From contig JAUVXV010000003.1 of NCBI GenBank assembly GCA_030603365.1, forward strand, positions 192,001 to 256,000: 64,000 nt of DNA, in the 5' to 3' direction. The stretch is from Candidatus Heimdallarchaeota archaeon. Lineage in GTDB: Archaea > Asgardarchaeota > Heimdallarchaeia > Heimdallarchaeales > Heimdallarchaeaceae. The first letter of the stretch is position 1, and every line of letters begins with the position of its first letter. The position numbers were made by a program, and so were the translations under genes. Of this stretch, positions 53,254 to 60,401 are shown in pieces. The notes beneath the pieces are model-generated. The model had not been told where the DNA came from. It did not search any database and was given only the letters and a program-made list of their open reading frames with translations.

Positions 53254-53559
53254 GTGATTTTTTTGTCTTCCCATCCTTCTATTGAAGAAAAAGGGGAAGA
53301 TGTTTTTCTTAAGATAATTGCTCATCCTAATTCATCAAGGAAGCAAATATCAATAACAGAGAATAGTATTGATATTTATGTAAATGAACCTCCAGATAAA
53401 GGGAGAGCAAATAAAGCTATTCTCAAACTTCTATCAAAATCTCTCAAACTTCCATCTTCTTCAATGAGTATATTAAAAGGAGTAAAATCAAAAAATAAAG
53501 TCATTATGGTAAAAAATTGTAATAAGAACTTTATCTTAGAAAAAGTAAAGATAATCTAG
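53254..53559 (+). CDS. DUF167/YggU (UPF0235) family protein
   Basis: P.S, PPDKGRAN, I.KG.KS.NK. Confidence 0.88.
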   Translation: MIFLSSHPSIEEKGEDVFLKIIAHPNSSRKQISITENSIDIYVNEPPDKGRANKAILKLLSKSLKLPSSSMSILKGVKSKNKVIMVKNCNKNFILEKVKII

Positions 53560-54122
53560 AGTTTCATTTTCTCAAAAGCTCTAAGTAACTCATTTCTTTC
53601 ATTGAATCTTTCATATACGTTTTTACTAAGATTCATCAAATTAGCAATACCTATTTCAACAGTGTCTAACATCATCTCTTCTAAGCTAACTTTGATTTCT
53701 GTAATTTTATCCTTAAGTTCCTCTGAATTATCAAGAATATCTATCTCTAGTAAATACAAAATAGAAAGATCTATACCATGCTCTCCTTCAACATCTGTAA
53801 CATCAAAAAATGTACTATATTTATAATCTGTATTTTTACCATCTTTTCTTAAATCACTTATCGTTTTTATAGTAATACCAGCTGGTCCCCAGCTTGTAAG
53901 AAGTTGTGAATGAATAAGCAATTCATGAACCTGGCTCATCATATCCCCTGTTTCTCTGAGAATATTGATTAGTTTGGTTCTAAAAGCAATATCGGTTTTT
54001 TTCCTATATTCTAATGCTTTATAGCCGAGATAACCTTCTATATTCGCTCTTAAAATCTTCAAAGCTTCACTTGGTGCATCGGATAAAGTTGAATTTGCAG
54101 TATCTTTCTTCTTACCAAACAT
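53556..54122 (-). CDS. Hypothetical alpha-helical protein
   Basis: IEGYLGYKALEYRKKTD..FR and YKYSTFFD motifs. Confidence 0.7.
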   Translation of the reverse strand: MFGKKKDTANSTLSDAPSEALKILRANIEGYLGYKALEYRKKTDIAFRTKLINILRETGDMMSQVHELLIHSQLLTSWGPAGITIKTISDLRKDGKNTDYKYSTFFDVTDVEGEHGIDLSILYLLEIDILDNSEELKDKITEIKVSLEEMMLDTVEIGIANLMNLSKNVYERFNERNELLRAFEKMKL

Positions 54123-54144: not shown

Positions 54145-55920
54145 TTATTGCTTTAATAAATATATTGTGCGTATTTCTTCATTTGAAGTTGCTTGTTCTG
54201 GAGGTCTATCATCTACTAATTTTCCTGTAAATCTTGGGAAACGGAGCGCTAAACCATCATTTTCGTTATCAAAATACCCTCTAGAGCAGGTGTGCATTTG
54301 ACTTTTCGTTATTTCTGCACCAGTAATTTCAATAACAATCTTTGGATCAAACCATACACTACAATCAATATCACTTAATACTTCCTTTGGTTTTTCTCTT
54401 TCTAAAGGTTTGAGAATTTCAAAAAAGTGAGCTAAGTCATCATCAGAAAAACCTGTTGCAACACGTGTAAAGGTTTGATAAATGCTTTCTTCTACATCAA
54501 AACATCCTAGCAGAAAAGTACCATACTTACCTGCTCTTTTACCTTTTCCAAACTCAGCTCCCAGTATAACCAAATCAAACGAATCTGATAATTTATCTAC
54601 ATAATCTGCCTTGTATTTAACCCAGTTCCAGCCTCTAGCACCAGCTTGATATATAGAATCTTCTCCTACTCCTTTACCCATTACTCCTTCACAACTATTT
54701 TCTAAAGCATGATGAAAGAAACTATCAATTTCATCAGTATTATCTGCGATAGTCTGATGAGAAAATTTAATGCTTTCGGTTTCTTTTAATATATTTGACA
54801 GTACCTCTCTTCTTTTCAAATATCCTTCATCAAGTATAGATTTGTTATCTGCATATAATGCATCAAAAAGATAAACTCTAACTGGGATTTCTGTAATTTT
54901 CTGCTCAATATCATGTTTTCTTTTTCTTTGAGATACTTGTTGAAAGGGGAGTATTTTTTCTTTTTTACTATCATAAGCAACGATTTCTCCCTCAATAATG
55001 AAATTGTCTTTTAGAGCTGCGTCATGTATAAACTCAATTACATCAGGAAACTGTTTTGTTATGTCTTCTGGTCTTCTGGAAAAGAGTTTAATCTTATCTC
55101 CTTTTTTGTGTAACTGAACTCTTAATCCATCATATTTGTACTCCAAAGATACTTTACCATCAAATCTTTCTAAAAGTTCTTCAGCACTAGAAACTCTTTG
55201 AGCTAACATTACTTTTATTGGATTCATAATCTGAGCTTTGATTTCTGCAACGGCTTCTATTCCTTCTTTGAAAAGGGTTTCAGATACAAAGCAAATATCA
55301 GATGTTATGTTATAGGCTCTCTCTAAAATATTCTTCTTATCTCTGGTTCCAGTTTTTGCTTTTGCAAGTGCTTCTAGAAGGAGTTGAATTGCTACTCCTA
55401 ATCTTAATTGTCCTATGACCATTCTTACAATATATCTAGCTTCTAAAGGACTAGCTTTAGAAATCAAACCTGAAAGAATTCTGATCTTTTTGTCAGAAGA
55501 CCCCTCCCCAGAAGTTTGAGCTATAGAATCTAGTATATTCCAAACATCAATTATTTCATAATCCTTTTCTTCTTTTTGTGCTGTAAATGATAAAAGTGTA
55601 GATTGAGATTTCTTCTCTAGAAGTATCTGAGCTGTCTGACCTAAATCTCCAACTTCTTCTACAATCTTAGCAACATTCTTCTCATTTTTCCCAGTTGAAA
55701 TTGCAAGTGCTTTTGTTGCCATTTTTTCAGCTAACATTAATTCTATACCCAAAAAATCAGGATAAATTTTGCCTATTGTCAGTAGAGAAATTTTCCCGAT
55801 TTCCTCACTTGAAGCTTTTGAAAGAGTTTCAGCTAAAATATCAACCATTTCAAGTTTTTTCTGTGTCTTTTCTAATTTGAAATAGCATTGACTAAGTTCC
55901 TTGAATTTCAATCTCATCAA
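54145..55920 (-). CDS. lig: ATP-dependent DNA ligase (archaeal/eukaryotic ligase I type)
   Basis: EYKYDG.R adenylation motif; EGEIV; EGVMGK; WVKYK; LRFPRF. Confidence 0.96.
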   Translation of the reverse strand: MMRLKFKELSQCYFKLEKTQKKLEMVDILAETLSKASSEEIGKISLLTIGKIYPDFLGIELMLAEKMATKALAISTGKNEKNVAKIVEEVGDLGQTAQILLEKKSQSTLLSFTAQKEEKDYEIIDVWNILDSIAQTSGEGSSDKKIRILSGLISKASPLEARYIVRMVIGQLRLGVAIQLLLEALAKAKTGTRDKKNILERAYNITSDICFVSETLFKEGIEAVAEIKAQIMNPIKVMLAQRVSSAEELLERFDGKVSLEYKYDGLRVQLHKKGDKIKLFSRRPEDITKQFPDVIEFIHDAALKDNFIIEGEIVAYDSKKEKILPFQQVSQRKRKHDIEQKITEIPVRVYLFDALYADNKSILDEGYLKRREVLSNILKETESIKFSHQTIADNTDEIDSFFHHALENSCEGVMGKGVGEDSIYQAGARGWNWVKYKADYVDKLSDSFDLVILGAEFGKGKRAGKYGTFLLGCFDVEESIYQTFTRVATGFSDDDLAHFFEILKPLEREKPKEVLSDIDCSVWFDPKIVIEITGAEITKSQMHTCSRGYFDNENDGLALRFPRFTGKLVDDRPPEQATSNEEIRTIYLLKQ

Positions 55921-55923
55921 ACC

Positions 55924-57318
55924 CTAGAAGATTTTTCTTTTACCCTTTTGTTCTTTCATCTCAAGAACTATCTCACTAATAAGATGGATGAGATTTGCAC
56001 TTAAAACGTCGACACTATTTTTTAGCTCTCTGATGGACTGAACTAAATCTCCCATCATTTGCGACTGTTCAGTGGAAGCTTCAGCTCTAGGTCGAGTAAC
56101 TTTTTGTGAATCAAGTTTCTGATCAAATATCATTAAATCTTTCTCGAACTGATCCATTTCAGGTGTTCTTGGTTCTGGAATAGATGAAATATCTGCTTTA
56201 GATTTCTTTCTCTCTTCTCTTTTTTGTTTCTCTCTTTGATCTTTTTCTTTCATCTTTTCCAGATAAGGAAGAACTTGAGAATAATCAATTCCTTCTCTTC
56301 TAGCCATATCTGTTAACAGAATATCTCTATATCCTTGATCCTCAATTTTCAATTCATCGATTTCTTTTTCTAATTCATGGATTATAGACATAGCTTCATA
56401 GATATCAGTTTTTGACATCTTTGGTTCAATTTCCTTAACTTCTATTTTTGTAGCTTTGACTTCGTCTCTTAATGTTTGCATAGCTTTTATAACTTCAGTT
56501 TTAACCTGATCAGTTTCTCCTCTGGAGAGTGCTTCCTTCACTAGATCAATTTTACTCACTGATTTATAGGGTTCTTTTTCCTCTTTTTCTTTAATCTCCA
56601 CTGGAGCAGTTTCTACTTGTTCTACTCCGGTATCTTCTTTCTCTCCTAAAGACATTGGAGGTGTTCCAATGTGAGCAAAAATGTTTTTAGCAAAAGTTGC
56701 ATTATCTTTAAGATCTAAACCTGCTTTTTTGTCTGAAAACATCAGGTAAGAGCCACATACAAACACTGTACCTAAACCATAAGATGTGATTGCTGCAACA
56801 GCACTACTTGGTGGGTCACTTGAACCACTTGTTCTCGCTAACTCCACATTTCCTTCATCTAGCTGCAAAGAACAACTGGAAACAACTACTATTTCCTTCA
56901 AATTATCTGTTATAGGATGCTGATAAAACTTCGATATAACTGCATTGCTTTCCAATTTTAATTCGAAGTTTTCATAATCAAAAATCTGATTTGATACAGT
57001 TGAGATTTTGAAATGCTTCAACAATGTATTTAGATTTGTACCTAAACCACTGTCCCCTCCTGCATTTGCAAAAATAGCTAAAGCTCCTCCTTCATCAACA
57101 AATCGAAGTAGAGCCTTTACTTCATGCCCATAAAGTTTACTCGAGTCTGGGCAGGGAAGAACTAGTACATCATAATCTGTGATGTTGGTATATTTTATTG
57201 GGTATGAATCATATCGTGCTACTTCGTGACCTTCATTTTCTAGAAGTTCACTTAATTTTTGGAAATTCTCGTGGATTTTTCCCCTTTCTTTTTGAGTTTC
57301 GTCAAATAATATCCTCAT
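55924..57318 (-). CDS. Cytoplasmic GIFT-domain (IFT52/GldG/DUF4350-like) protein with a charged coiled-coil tail
   Basis: MRILFDETQKE, GGALAIFANAGGD...TNLNTLL, GTVFVCGSYLMFSD, DNATF; no signal peptide. Confidence 0.75.
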   Translation of the reverse strand: MRILFDETQKERGKIHENFQKLSELLENEGHEVARYDSYPIKYTNITDYDVLVLPCPDSSKLYGHEVKALLRFVDEGGALAIFANAGGDSGLGTNLNTLLKHFKISTVSNQIFDYENFELKLESNAVISKFYQHPITDNLKEIVVVSSCSLQLDEGNVELARTSGSSDPPSSAVAAITSYGLGTVFVCGSYLMFSDKKAGLDLKDNATFAKNIFAHIGTPPMSLGEKEDTGVEQVETAPVEIKEKEEKEPYKSVSKIDLVKEALSRGETDQVKTEVIKAMQTLRDEVKATKIEVKEIEPKMSKTDIYEAMSIIHELEKEIDELKIEDQGYRDILLTDMARREGIDYSQVLPYLEKMKEKDQREKQKREERKKSKADISSIPEPRTPEMDQFEKDLMIFDQKLDSQKVTRPRAEASTEQSQMMGDLVQSIRELKNSVDVLSANLIHLISEIVLEMKEQKGKRKIF

Positions 57319-57520
57319 ATAGACACCCTTTTTCCTGCTAGGAATTCTTTTCTCTCTTTATACTTACAATTTAATCCTTTATAATTATTAATCTTATTGA
57401 TGTAATATGTTGTTGTTGACGGGTTTTTAAGTAAAAAGAACTAAATATTAGTGATTTCTCTCAATTTAAGCAGTAAAGAATAAAAACCTCTATTTCATAG
57501 CACTATCATCCGGTGAATGA

Positions 57521-58378
57521 ATGACACAATTAGATTTCGCTAAATTAACAGAGTTAGCTTCGTCAAGATTAGATATTATCGTTTTACACTCCCAAAAAGG
57601 TGGACCAGGAAAAACAACATTATCTTGCAATATTGCTCATGAACTAGCTAAAAGAGGAAATAAAACCGTTCTTGTTGATCTAGATATTGCTCAACCAACA
57701 ATTCAACACATCTTTAAAATTCCCGATAAAAAAATCAAGCATACAATCAATGATATTCTTTTAGGAGAAGTTAAAGTTAATGAGGATGTTCTTCTTGAAA
57801 CTGAAAACTCCAACTTGCTTCTTATTGCTGCTAAGGAAAATGTGGAATACGGTGAAGGTTTGTTATCTTTGTTGGAAGGAATTCAGCAATACTCATTCTT
57901 TGCCTTACATGAAATGACAAAGTTTCTACTTAGAATGGGTTTTAGATATGTGATTTATGATTGTGCCCCTGGATATAGAATGGAATCTGTTAATGCTGCT
58001 GCTATTGCTGATGCAAGGTTATTTGTCATTCGTCCATCAACTTTTAGCTTTGAAGGTGCGAAACAGATGCTTAATGATATCTATAAAAAATTGGATATTA
58101 GATCACTAAACTACTTTGTTTTTAATCAAGTACCTCCAGAGATGAAGGAAGAAAACCAAAAATTACTCAATGGGTGGAAAGAAGAATTAATAAAATTATA
58201 TCTTCCAGAGAAAATCGCATTCTTAGACTTCTTGCCAATTTCTTTTGAGATAATGGAGCTTGGAATTAAAGGTGAATATATTTTTCCAGAAAAAACTGTT
58301 CTCTATGAAAAATTATCTGAAATAGTAACTGAAATTACATCTAGAATAGATGAAATGAAAGACTTAAAGGAAGAGTAA
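57521..58378 (+). CDS. MinD/ParA-family ATPase
   Basis: Deviant Walker A KGGPGKTT; VDLD; YDCAPG; FNQV. Confidence 0.88.
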   Translation: MTQLDFAKLTELASSRLDIIVLHSQKGGPGKTTLSCNIAHELAKRGNKTVLVDLDIAQPTIQHIFKIPDKKIKHTINDILLGEVKVNEDVLLETENSNLLLIAAKENVEYGEGLLSLLEGIQQYSFFALHEMTKFLLRMGFRYVIYDCAPGYRMESVNAAAIADARLFVIRPSTFSFEGAKQMLNDIYKKLDIRSLNYFVFNQVPPEMKEENQKLLNGWKEELIKLYLPEKIAFLDFLPISFEIMELGIKGEYIFPEKTVLYEKLSEIVTEITSRIDEMKDLKEE

Positions 58379-58438
58379 TTTTATTAATCACGAATCTTAT
58401 ATCAAATTTTATATTAGGTAACGTATATAGTTCTATCG

Positions 58439-59422
58439 ATGAGTCTAGTTAAAGAGTATCAATGTCCTCATTGTAATGCTCCTATGGACGTTAATCCTGA
58501 AGATGCAATTTTCAATTGTGTATCTTGTGGTCAGGCTGTTTTATCTGATGGTTCTGAATTCAAGGACCACTATATTCTAAAAAACACACTTAACCGAACC
58601 AAGATACATGAAATTGTAAAGGATTTTATTAAGAAGAAAGGCTTCATGCGAGGGATTAAAGGTTATAAAATCACTAATATAACACCTACATTGACGCCGT
58701 TCTGGGTTGTTACTTCTGATGCATATACACACTTCGTGGGATATCTCAGATATTCAGAAACAAAAACAAGAACCGTTGGTTCTGGAAAGAATAGAAGAAC
58801 TGTTACTGAACATGTTACAGTTTATCGTCCTATTGATCAAGAGATAAGAGAAAAAAGAGCAGATGTACTCCTTGGAAGGAGAGGAAGCTCTATTTATGGA
58901 TATGATAAGGTAAGAGATATTGTCCGTTCAGAATTTTCGACTGCTATACCTTTTAACCATGATCACCTAGTGGGTACAGAGAAGGAATTTGATTATTTAT
59001 CTTCAGAAATAGATTTAGATGCAGCTAATCAACTAGGAAAAACAGTTGTCTTTGATAATCATAGAGCTAGAGCACAGAAAGCTTGTACTAAAGTGTTCGA
59101 TTGTGCAACACAGCTAACTTATACTGGAACTTATTTTGTTCATGCTCCTGTTTGGCAAGTGGAATATGTCTTCAAAGATGAAACCTACAGAATTGCTATT
59201 TTGGGTAGTAGTGGAAGGATTATTCTAGGTGAAATACCAGTTACAACAAGATTCCGAATGATTTTCCTGACTTTGACATTTCTGGCCTTAGGAGCTGCTG
59301 GAGCAGGCAGTTGGTTCGGGAGATATGAAGTCTATGTACCTATTATAGCGGGTATTGTAGCAGCAGTTATAGGGTTCTTTACGCTGAAAAATACGTTTAA
59401 ACCTAAATCGGTGGTGGATTAA
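58439..59422 (+). CDS. Zn-ribbon membrane protein, YdjG-like
   Basis: CPHC...CVSC; PFWVV; APVW; two C-terminal TMs. Confidence 0.72.
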   Translation: MSLVKEYQCPHCNAPMDVNPEDAIFNCVSCGQAVLSDGSEFKDHYILKNTLNRTKIHEIVKDFIKKKGFMRGIKGYKITNITPTLTPFWVVTSDAYTHFVGYLRYSETKTRTVGSGKNRRTVTEHVTVYRPIDQEIREKRADVLLGRRGSSIYGYDKVRDIVRSEFSTAIPFNHDHLVGTEKEFDYLSSEIDLDAANQLGKTVVFDNHRARAQKACTKVFDCATQLTYTGTYFVHAPVWQVEYVFKDETYRIAILGSSGRIILGEIPVTTRFRMIFLTLTFLALGAAGAGSWFGRYEVYVPIIAGIVAAVIGFFTLKNTFKPKSVVD

Positions 59423-59423
59423 G

Positions 59424-60401
59424 ATGAATGTAAAATCAATAATGTGTCCAAATTGTGCTGCACCCTTAGAAATGGAAGCAACTCAATCTCATGTTACTTG
59501 TCCATATTGTAGTGTAACGAGCGAACTGAAGAAAGTTTCAGAATTAATTGAACATTTTATGTTACCAGTGAGCTATGATATTGACCAAATTAAAACAGAA
59601 CTAGTTGGAGATATTTTAAAGCATCCAGGAACTCCTGAAGATTTGCATAAATCTCTACAATTTTCAAAAATCGATTTGAAATTCTATCCATACTTTATTG
59701 TTACTGTTCATCTAAGAACAGAATATAAGGGAAATGGAGAGTACGCAACTTTCAGTAGCCGATATAAATCTGGTTATCGTCGCATAAGTACTCATTTAAA
59801 ACCAGAACAAGGGGTTTTTGATGATACACGTGAATTCATCATCTATTCAGCTGAAGATGTTCAAAACGATCTCATAAATTTCGAGATATCAACTAGAGGA
59901 AAAAGGTATTTCCAAGCATTAGAAGCTGAGAAAGTTAATGCTGATGTTAATTCCAGTATATTCAACTTAGATCAAGCAAAAGAAGAAGCTATTAGGAATA
60001 TGAGAGAGATCCATAAAGGGTTGATGATGAAAGAATTAGCTCAGATACTAGAGGTCAGAGATGAACCAGAAGTTAAAGGTGTTTATCTTTTACATATTCC
60101 CTTCTATTTCTTAGAGTTTAAAGTTGGTAAAAAGGAATACAAAGCAACAATGGATGCTGCAACTGGTAGAACTGTGATAACTCAAGTTCCACGAGAAACT
60201 TCCTATTGGGTACAAATAGGGGTACTAACAACTCTTTTCGGTGGAATTGGAATAGCAGGGATATTCTTTGCAGTACAACAAATAGCTCTGTTAGGATACT
60301 TTAGTATATTTGGTGCAATAGCAGGTTTAGTGTTCGCAATTCGTACTCTACAACTTGGATTGAAATCCAGATATAGAGAAACTCAGAGGAAGAAACGGTA
60401 A
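59424..60401 (+). CDS. Zn-ribbon membrane protein, YdjG-like paralogue
   Basis: CPNC...CPYC; YPYF; IPFY; DAATG; two C-terminal TMs. Confidence 0.72.
   Translation: MNVKSIMCPNCAAPLEMEATQSHVTCPYCSVTSELKKVSELIEHFMLPVSYDIDQIKTELVGDILKHPGTPEDLHKSLQFSKIDLKFYPYFIVTVHLRTEYKGNGEYATFSSRYKSGYRRISTHLKPEQGVFDDTREFIIYSAEDVQNDLINFEISTRGKRYFQALEAEKVNADVNSSIFNLDQAKEEAIRNMREIHKGLMMKELAQILEVRDEPEVKGVYLLHIPFYFLEFKVGKKEYKATMDAATGRTVITQVPRETSYWVQIGVLTTLFGGIGIAGIFFAVQQIALLGYFSIFGAIAGLVFAIRTLQLGLKSRYRETQRKKR

Follow-up and report, generated by a model that had tools for sequence, protein, structure and literature searches.

IFT52 is the central scaffold of the intraflagellar transport B1 (IFT-B1) complex. It begins with a GIFT domain, whose biochemical role is unclear even within IFT52, and to our knowledge only a general link to "bacterial gliding/ABC-accessory proteins" has so far been given for the origin of this domain. 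Here we analyzed a 64,000-nucleotide stretch of DNA (the window) from Candidatus Heimdallarchaeota archaeon (GCA_030603365.1, contig JAUVXV010000003.1, positions 192,001-256,000), which encodes P0001, a cytoplasmic GIFT-domain protein of 464 amino acids. Its gene is an open reading frame with an ATG start codon on the minus strand (55924..57318; coordinates are positions within the window). Full-text searches of the accessible literature returned no paper combining IFT52 with Asgard, and no available part of the papers pairing intraflagellar transport with Asgard or "Heimdallarchae-" describes an Asgard IFT52-like protein.

The most telling feature of P0001 is a conserved operon with the only ATP-dependent DNA ligase found in the genome. 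We favor the reading that P0001 is a soluble, Asgard-wide GIFT protein that would be linked to DNA replication or repair as a non-catalytic adaptor. We put its probability at roughly 55%, most of which rests on the homology, cytoplasmic topology, architecture, operon packing and synteny reported below.

The GIFT domain of P0001 is homologous to that of IFT52

A preliminary description of the gene had placed four strings of P0001 in order along the IFT52 N-domain. All four (ILFDETQKE, GGALAIFANAGGDSGLGTNLNTLL, GTVFVCGSYLMFSD and LDLKDNATF) are present exactly and in that order, and HMMER recovered the alignment: residues 2-112 match residues 14-122 of Chlamydomonas IFT52, and residues 168-215 match residues 204-250. 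The whole-sequence E-value was 1.1e-6 among 177,635 PDB sequences; mouse IFT52 was matched as well, and IFT52 was the sole significant match. The Pfam family IFT52_GIFT (PF23355) covers residues 3-110 with 39.9 bits (E 3.3e-10; curated cut-off 27.2), and a six-frame search of the genome with the same family gave 37.2 bits at P0001. Judged by sequence comparison, the likeness to the IFT52 N-domain lies far beyond chance.

Comparison of the AlphaFold2 model of the N-domain with the PDB by Foldseek gave the top ranks to the N-domains of IFT52 (E 3.8e-14 to 2e-10, target-normalised TM-score 0.73-0.80), followed by STM1381/STM3548, OST48/Wbp1 and ThuA-like proteins, and the model superposes on the solved IFT52N fold over the whole domain. 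A profile of 58 family members detected IFT52 in the PDB with an E-value of 3e-29 over both domain halves, the next sequence having an E-value of at least 0.1; profile positions 2-128 and 144-219 align with residues 13-138 and 180-253 of Chlamydomonas IFT52 (E 3.2e-29). Both halves align with IFT52 at the motifs GG[DE]x4TN[IL]N and GSxx[MF]FxD, and the motifs common to the P0001 family and IFT52 are ILF at strand 1, GG(D/E)x4TN(I/L)N, PxNxP and G+hxVxGSxxhFxD. Since IFT52N ranks first by Foldseek and the family profile separates IFT52 so clearly from the next sequence, homology is secure: residues 1-218 share both the fold and significant sequence similarity with the N-terminal GIFT domain of IFT52. 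These data support IFT52 as the closest characterised relative of P0001.

The GIFT domain (56665..57318, minus strand) has a class-I glutamine-amidotransferase-like alpha/beta fold. It is strongly conserved among 26 aligned full-length orthologues (38-85% identical), and the same alignment was the input to the AlphaFold2 model, in which the alpha/beta N-domain is predicted confidently. Full-length homologues of P0001 number 48, and all that bear a name are Heimdallarchaeaceae, Heimdallarchaeota or "Asgard group". The domain occupies the same position in P0001 as in IFT52, namely the extreme N-terminus, ahead of a flexible linker and then a helical interaction region. The IFT52 N-domain (OSM-6/BLD1, IFT-B1 core subunit; 5FMR, 5FMS, 8BD7 chain B) is likewise cytoplasmic; for P0001, a 19-residue hydropathy scan detected no transmembrane segment and showed a hydrophilic stretch over the first 40 residues, which bears out the proposal that the protein lacks both membrane anchor and signal peptide. 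The two domains differ in that only IFT52 carries some 40 extra residues, inserted between the domain halves, and in that IFT52 lacks Cys56, His134 and Cys149, which the Asgard family conserves.

P0001 does not score as a generic DUF4350 or GldG protein; grouping with such proteins is what the preliminary description had named as contrary to its reading. The scores were below the cut-offs of PF09822 (GldG/ABC_transp_aux; 27.2 bits, cut-off 34.7) and PF14258 (DUF4350; 19.9 bits, cut-off 30.4), and PF03345 (OST48_N) likewise stayed at 17.3 bits with a cut-off of 36.

Linkage of the GIFT gene to replication genes

The ATP-dependent DNA ligase (54145..55920, minus strand; Pfam DNA_ligase_A_N, _M and _C) starts 3-6 nucleotides past the stop codon of the GIFT gene, as read from the junction sequence. 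PF01068 has a single match in the genome, so that this is the sole ligase of the family found there. The gene for P0221, a helical protein of 188 amino acids without a Pfam family (53556..54122, minus strand), follows 22 nucleotides after the ligase. The GIFT gene is the first gene of a tightly packed three-gene unit consisting of GIFT, ligase and P0221.

Conservation of this arrangement was followed with a scan of 185,579 species genomes for the pattern FDxTQKERG, starting from a subset of 15 sequences; being limited by the pattern, the scan is no proof of absence outside Asgard. The 93 relatives with this pattern are labelled as Asgard or come from uncultured or otherwise labelled archaea that group with Asgard in the tree. 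From species-representative genomes 80 loci were mapped, 29 of Heimdall type and 51 others (L040-L090). The ligase adjoins the GIFT gene in 26 of the 29 Heimdall-type loci; two contigs end short, and L038 has no ligase and carries the 188-amino-acid gene directly after the GIFT gene. A P0221 homologue follows the ligase in Heimdall-type loci wherever the contig extends far enough, and also in the loci of MAG151 (an unclassified Promethearchaeati metagenome-assembled genome) and Sifarchaeum. The trio is kept down to 38% identity. The ligase also adjoins the GIFT orthologue in Hodarchaeota, Wukongarchaeum, MAG151 and Sifarchaeum, in the last with divergent or inverted orientation. In the Hodarchaeota locus the ligase is followed by a P0221 homologue of 175 amino acids, detectable by profile comparison only (hhalign probability 98%).

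P0221 is more conserved than its neighbours, with a mean column identity of 71% over 11 orthologues and the conserved blocks SQVHELLIHSQLLTSWG, DYKYSTFFD and NERNELIRAFEKM. Pfam and PDB searches gave it no name, and an ESM Atlas look-up, with recognition below the useful range, gave only unnamed clusters.

In other lineages the GIFT gene is linked to a family-B DNA polymerase (PolB): of the 51 remaining loci, 41 have it at a distance of at most 4 kb, and all 41 are of Thor, Jord, Frey or Hermod type. Within the 4 kb upstream of the GIFT gene lies a PCC-domain gene in 41 of these remaining loci and a HIT-family gene in 38. The block recurs among L042-L090 (e.g. L066:77-5300 and L045:467-5300) as PolB on the minus strand, PCC (PF03479) on the plus strand, HIT on the minus strand (Thor type only) and GIFT on the plus strand. 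Downstream of the PolB-linked GIFT gene lie a convergent gene for a protein of 1060 amino acids without a Pfam family and a gene for a protein with a Rad50 zinc hook. Four apparent conserved neighbours (U356, U346, U118 and U130) were discarded as shadow open reading frames antisense to PolB.

In a maximum-likelihood tree of the 80 domains and 15 outgroup sequences, the 80 form one clade with a support of 93 in the Shimodaira-Hasegawa-like approximate likelihood ratio test (SH-aLRT). Its subclades track the Asgard lineages and split into a ligase-linked and a PolB-linked part. PF23355 had matches in 392 of 400 genomes of the phylum, in 373 over the cut-off and with 1-7 matches each, and in none of 14 control genomes. 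The Hodarchaeota orthologue aligns with positions 2-235 of the 246 positions of IFT52_GIFT (62.7 bits). P0001 belongs to an ancient, Asgard-wide, vertically inherited orthologue group with replication-enzyme neighbours in every lineage sampled.

Two loci carry labels at odds with their placement. L028 is labelled Thorarchaeota, yet its protein is 65% identical to P0001, its synteny is of Heimdall type and its place in the tree is inside the Heimdall clade. L049, labelled Thermoproteota, groups with the Jord and Frey orthologues and has a PolB gene close by. These discrepancies suggest mis-binning or mislabelling.

On its other side the GIFT gene is separated by an AT-rich intergenic region of 202 bp (57319..57520) from a divergent gene group on the plus strand (57521..60401). 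Reading of the spacer revealed TATA-like runs and a GGGTG motif 6 nucleotides upstream of the ATG, and the spacer is a putative promoter region. The divergent genes encode a ParA/MinD-type ATPase (Pfam AAA_31, CbiA and ParA) and two paralogous zinc-ribbon proteins (58439..60401) of about 326 amino acids each, with an N-terminal CxxC...CxxC, a soluble middle part and a C-terminal hydrophobic, transmembrane segment. The zinc-ribbon pair stands beside the GIFT gene only in Heimdall-type loci, in nearly all of them (not in L025); it is divergent in most and co-directional upstream in L038, the locus without ligase.

These neighbours could be read as pointing to a membrane-associated positioning or remodelling system of P0001, the ParA/MinD ATPase and the two zinc-ribbon membrane proteins, to which the adjacency of the ligase would be incidental. 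The constancy of the pair in two orientations, even at the ligase-less L038, is what such a system would show, as are the ParA/MinD gene in most Heimdall-type loci and the amphipathic C-terminal helix of P0001 with its basic end. Yet neither ParA nor the zinc-ribbon pair lies beside the Hod, Wukong, Sif, Jord, Frey or Thor orthologues, where replication genes recur instead; ParA is missing from L036-L039; and the translational packing of the GIFT gene is with the ligase rather than with the ParA and zinc-ribbon genes. We regard this reading as distinctly unlikely.

The tail of P0001 and the breadth of the IFT52 likeness

The preliminary description had likened the whole layout of P0001 to that of IFT52. 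The gross layout does agree, a GIFT domain being followed by a disordered linker and a helical tail. The linker (residues ~219-300; 56419..56664, minus strand) is acidic and variable, with weak conservation and gaps in the 26-orthologue alignment, and is mostly disordered: the predicted local distance difference test score (pLDDT) falls below 50 at residues 222-258 and 288-298. Helices are predicted at residues 303-374, 390-404 and 414-463, and the region after the GIFT domain, minus its last 50 residues, is 45% charged.

Three elements follow the linker on the minus strand. A conserved three-helix module (residues ~303-375; 56194..56412) holds GYRDILLTDMARRxGIDY, and D327, G329, Y330, T336, D337, A339, R340, G343, D345 and Y346 are invariant in the 26 orthologues. 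Next, the conserved short linear motif SIPxPxTPxDxFE.....FD (residues ~379-399; 56122..56184) stands in a disordered stretch with variable flanks; P381 and P383 are at least 90% conserved, and the motif may be a partner-binding peptide. The protein ends in an amphipathic helix of 50 residues (414-463; 55930..56079) with a basic tail, the conserved sequence ELKNSVDVLSANLIHLxSEIVLE and a pLDDT of 91-94. Modelled by themselves, the C-terminal 169 residues form five helices with a pLDDT of 77, and the three-helix module reaches 84-91.

Residues 296-464 matched no Pfam family (E up to 5) beyond coiled-coil noise and had no significant PDB sequence match; the best Foldseek E-value was 2.8. A wide VIA fold search returned only generic coiled coils (Z at most 6), where a missing fold match does not prove a different fold. 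Thus no known unrelated domain came to light there in Pfam, PDB or fold searches, and the suspected likeness to IFT52 was not borne out either, being undetectable in sequence or fold against the central and C-terminal regions of IFT52. The segment of IFT52 that binds IFT70/88 and its IFT46-binding domain show no detectable relation to the archaeal tail. A MerR-like reading of the C-terminal half, prompted by a match with E 0.47 and the helix-turn-helix look of residues 330-352, was dropped as not significant.

All 58 family members have a low-complexity linker and then a helical end, and the ends fall into classes, one C-terminal class being found in 28 of the 58 and the Heimdall class in 5. 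The P0001 tail is not common even to the Sifarchaeum orthologue, whose tail differs; it is specific to Heimdallarchaeaceae-type genomes. The linker and helical end parallel the IFT52 layout and are not evidence of homology. By eye, the proteins of the 28-member class (P0056, P0086, P0092, P0104 and 24 more) end in a SHOCT-like helix, F..G.I....Y.....L.

Of the IFT partners that had been suggested, IFT46 did not turn up: in the genome, which is 89% complete, its family (PF12317) had no match at E-values up to 0.1. IFT57 (PF10498) gave only sub-threshold coiled-coil matches there, of a kind also found in 8 of 14 control genomes. The genomic context of P0001 orthologues offers DNA ligase or PolB and nothing ciliary. 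P0001 is not a functional intraflagellar-transport subunit.

P0001 had further been described as a closer-than-usual relative of IFT52. In pairwise comparison with solved IFT52 it scored 31 bits, the Hodarchaeota orthologue 43 and the Sifarchaeum orthologue 61; the secreted GIFT proteins P0115 and P0149 scored 60 and 46. Moreover, when scored with the Asgard family profile, over 100 prokaryotic GIFT proteins reach 100-200 bits and so lie closer to it than IFT52, which has 91-105 bits. Because secreted proteins match or exceed its score and so many prokaryotic proteins are nearer to the profile, the claim of special closeness is unsupported. IFT52_GIFT is the best Pfam model for many secreted multidomain GIFT proteins (36-114 bits), and bacterial clusters in the ESM Atlas bear the same label; members named Thermoprotei and Bathyarchaeota archaea occur in the clusters of P0150 and P0126, and a Zixibacteria member in that of P0145, a related secreted match. 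These comparisons assign the IFT52 likeness to a broad prokaryotic GIFT subfamily as a whole rather than to P0001 in particular. What stands of the preliminary reading is the GIFT homology, the cytoplasmic location and the layout; the special closeness, the C-terminal likeness and the IFT46 partner are unsupported.

A phmmer search of 1.8 billion representatives gave 359 matches, of which the best 150 were all prokaryote-like. The top ~110 are proteins of 350-570 amino acids with the domain right at the start and no export signal, and those with a name belong to Loki-, Sigyn- and other Asgard archaea. A family profile search of the "longer" length class of a set of 5.8 billion proteins did not return eukaryotic IFT52, only Asgard and actinobacterial DUF6421 proteins. 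The latter (P0197-P0218, ~680-710 amino acids) have an N-terminal GIFT domain, no export signal and 57-99 bits against the Asgard family profile. Their GIFT domain is fused to a large unrelated domain and favours DUF4350 (35-47 bits) over IFT52_GIFT (18-30 bits).

Extracytoplasmic GIFT proteins (GldG/PF09822, DUF4350/PF14258, P0115, P0126, P0149 and P0150) have a homologous domain, often with IFT52_GIFT as best model, and bear signal peptides or transmembrane anchors, sequons and adhesin-type domains (PKD, CARDB), all of which P0001 lacks. Unlike GldG systems, P0001 has DNA ligase, P0221 and ParA/MinD as neighbours and no ABC transporter genes nearby. The luminal domain of OST48/Wbp1 (6S7T chain G, 6EZN chain G) has no significant sequence similarity (profile E 0.53), and OST48 is membrane-anchored, unlike P0001. 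The Salmonella "cytoplasmic proteins" STM1381 and STM3548 (3SOZ, 2GK3) likewise lack significant sequence similarity to the Asgard family profile. An exported GIFT paralogue, P0224 (665 amino acids; G000:C1:475728-478946, L002:631-2628, minus strand), is encoded in the same genome as P0001; it has a signal or transmembrane start, many N-x-S/T sequons and a C-terminal transmembrane anchor, and scores 35.7 bits with IFT52_GIFT and 33.7 with ABC_transp_aux.

The breadth of the subfamily bears on whether the cytoplasmic Asgard GIFT clade is the sister of eukaryotic IFT52 and its direct forerunner, a view in which the layout would be inherited and the archaeal protein would already be an adaptor for cargo or complexes. 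Among solved relatives IFT52 is the nearest in both sequence and fold; P0001 is cytoplasmic like IFT52; the family is near-universal in Asgard, including Hodarchaeota, whose orthologue spans IFT52_GIFT end to end; the match of the Sifarchaeum orthologue to mouse IFT52 has 100 bits and E 1e-15; and family members have a low-complexity linker and helical tail in common. Set against this are the secreted proteins P0115 and P0149, which lie outside the family and are as IFT52-like, the preference of many secreted proteins and of bacterial ESM Atlas clusters for the IFT52_GIFT model, the C-terminal half without detectable likeness to IFT52, and the results for IFT46 and IFT57. We consider descent of this kind unlikely.

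Conserved residues and the function of the Asgard GIFT proteins

Several polar residues of the GIFT domain are near-invariant in the family. Asp89 and Asn95 are present in all 58 members, Glu66 in 56, His134 in 53 and Cys56 in 50; Cys149 is found in 54, with Ser in the other four, and the family has GCSL where IFT52 has GATL. Judging from their conservation, Cys56, Asp89, Asn95, His134 and Cys149, together with position 150, may form a ligand, metal or catalytic site.

An enzyme would be a possible reading of this pattern: a Cys/His active or metal site, lost in IFT52, would have as its substrate a small molecule, or else an adduct of nucleic acid or protein with a bearing on the ligase, HIT protein and PolB. 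The fold is common to class-I amidotransferases and ThuA-like proteins, and the Thor-type loci place a gene for a HIT-family hydrolase in the upstream flank. The model, however, predicts Cys149 inside beta strand 148-153 and not at a strand-helix nucleophile elbow, and the order His-then-Cys is unlike that of the amidotransferase triad. Furthermore, we know of no catalytic GIFT domain, which we counted against an enzyme. In our estimate an enzymatic role is quite improbable.

Under the favored reading of a replication- or repair-linked GIFT protein, P0001 would act as a non-catalytic adaptor or scaffold. Its GIFT domain would be the platform that binds a partner or ligand, the tail may mediate self-association or partner capture, and the protein would work with the ligase and the small protein P0221 in replication or repair, or in the coordination of these with the cell cycle. 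A candidate PCNA-binding PIP box at QKGKRKIF was rejected; it has Lys where a hydrophobic residue is needed, and its last Phe is not conserved among orthologues.

Several points weigh against this proposal. The link to replication and repair is drawn from gene neighbourhood; related genomes are not independent, and part of the synteny may be inherited gene order. The zinc-ribbon membrane proteins are equally consistent neighbours in Heimdall-type genomes and point elsewhere, and the Loki-type paralogues L008 and L010 have unrelated neighbours. Finally, the near-invariant polar residues Cys56, Asp89, His134 and Cys149 are not found in IFT52 and could mark a catalytic or metal site.

Cytoplasmic GIFT proteins with the domain at the N-terminus and a linker-plus-helix tail are encoded in nearly every Asgard genome. 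One orthologue group has been inherited along the Asgard lineages in persistent linkage to replication genes: genomes of Heimdall, Hod, Wukong and Sif type have the ligase as its neighbour, those of Thor, Jord and Frey type PolB. Joined to a sister relationship with IFT52, this linkage would make the Asgard orthologue an ancestral adaptor of DNA ligase or PolB, and intraflagellar transport would owe its core scaffold to a chromosome-associated protein, a scenario that we hold to be markedly improbable. If the sister relationship were true, the Asgard GIFT orthologue would be a previously unlisted eukaryotic signature protein. The Asgard GIFT orthologues offer defined candidates with which the origin of IFT52 can be tested phylogenetically, and their linkage to DNA ligase and PolB provides an unexpected, testable functional lead for the GIFT domain.

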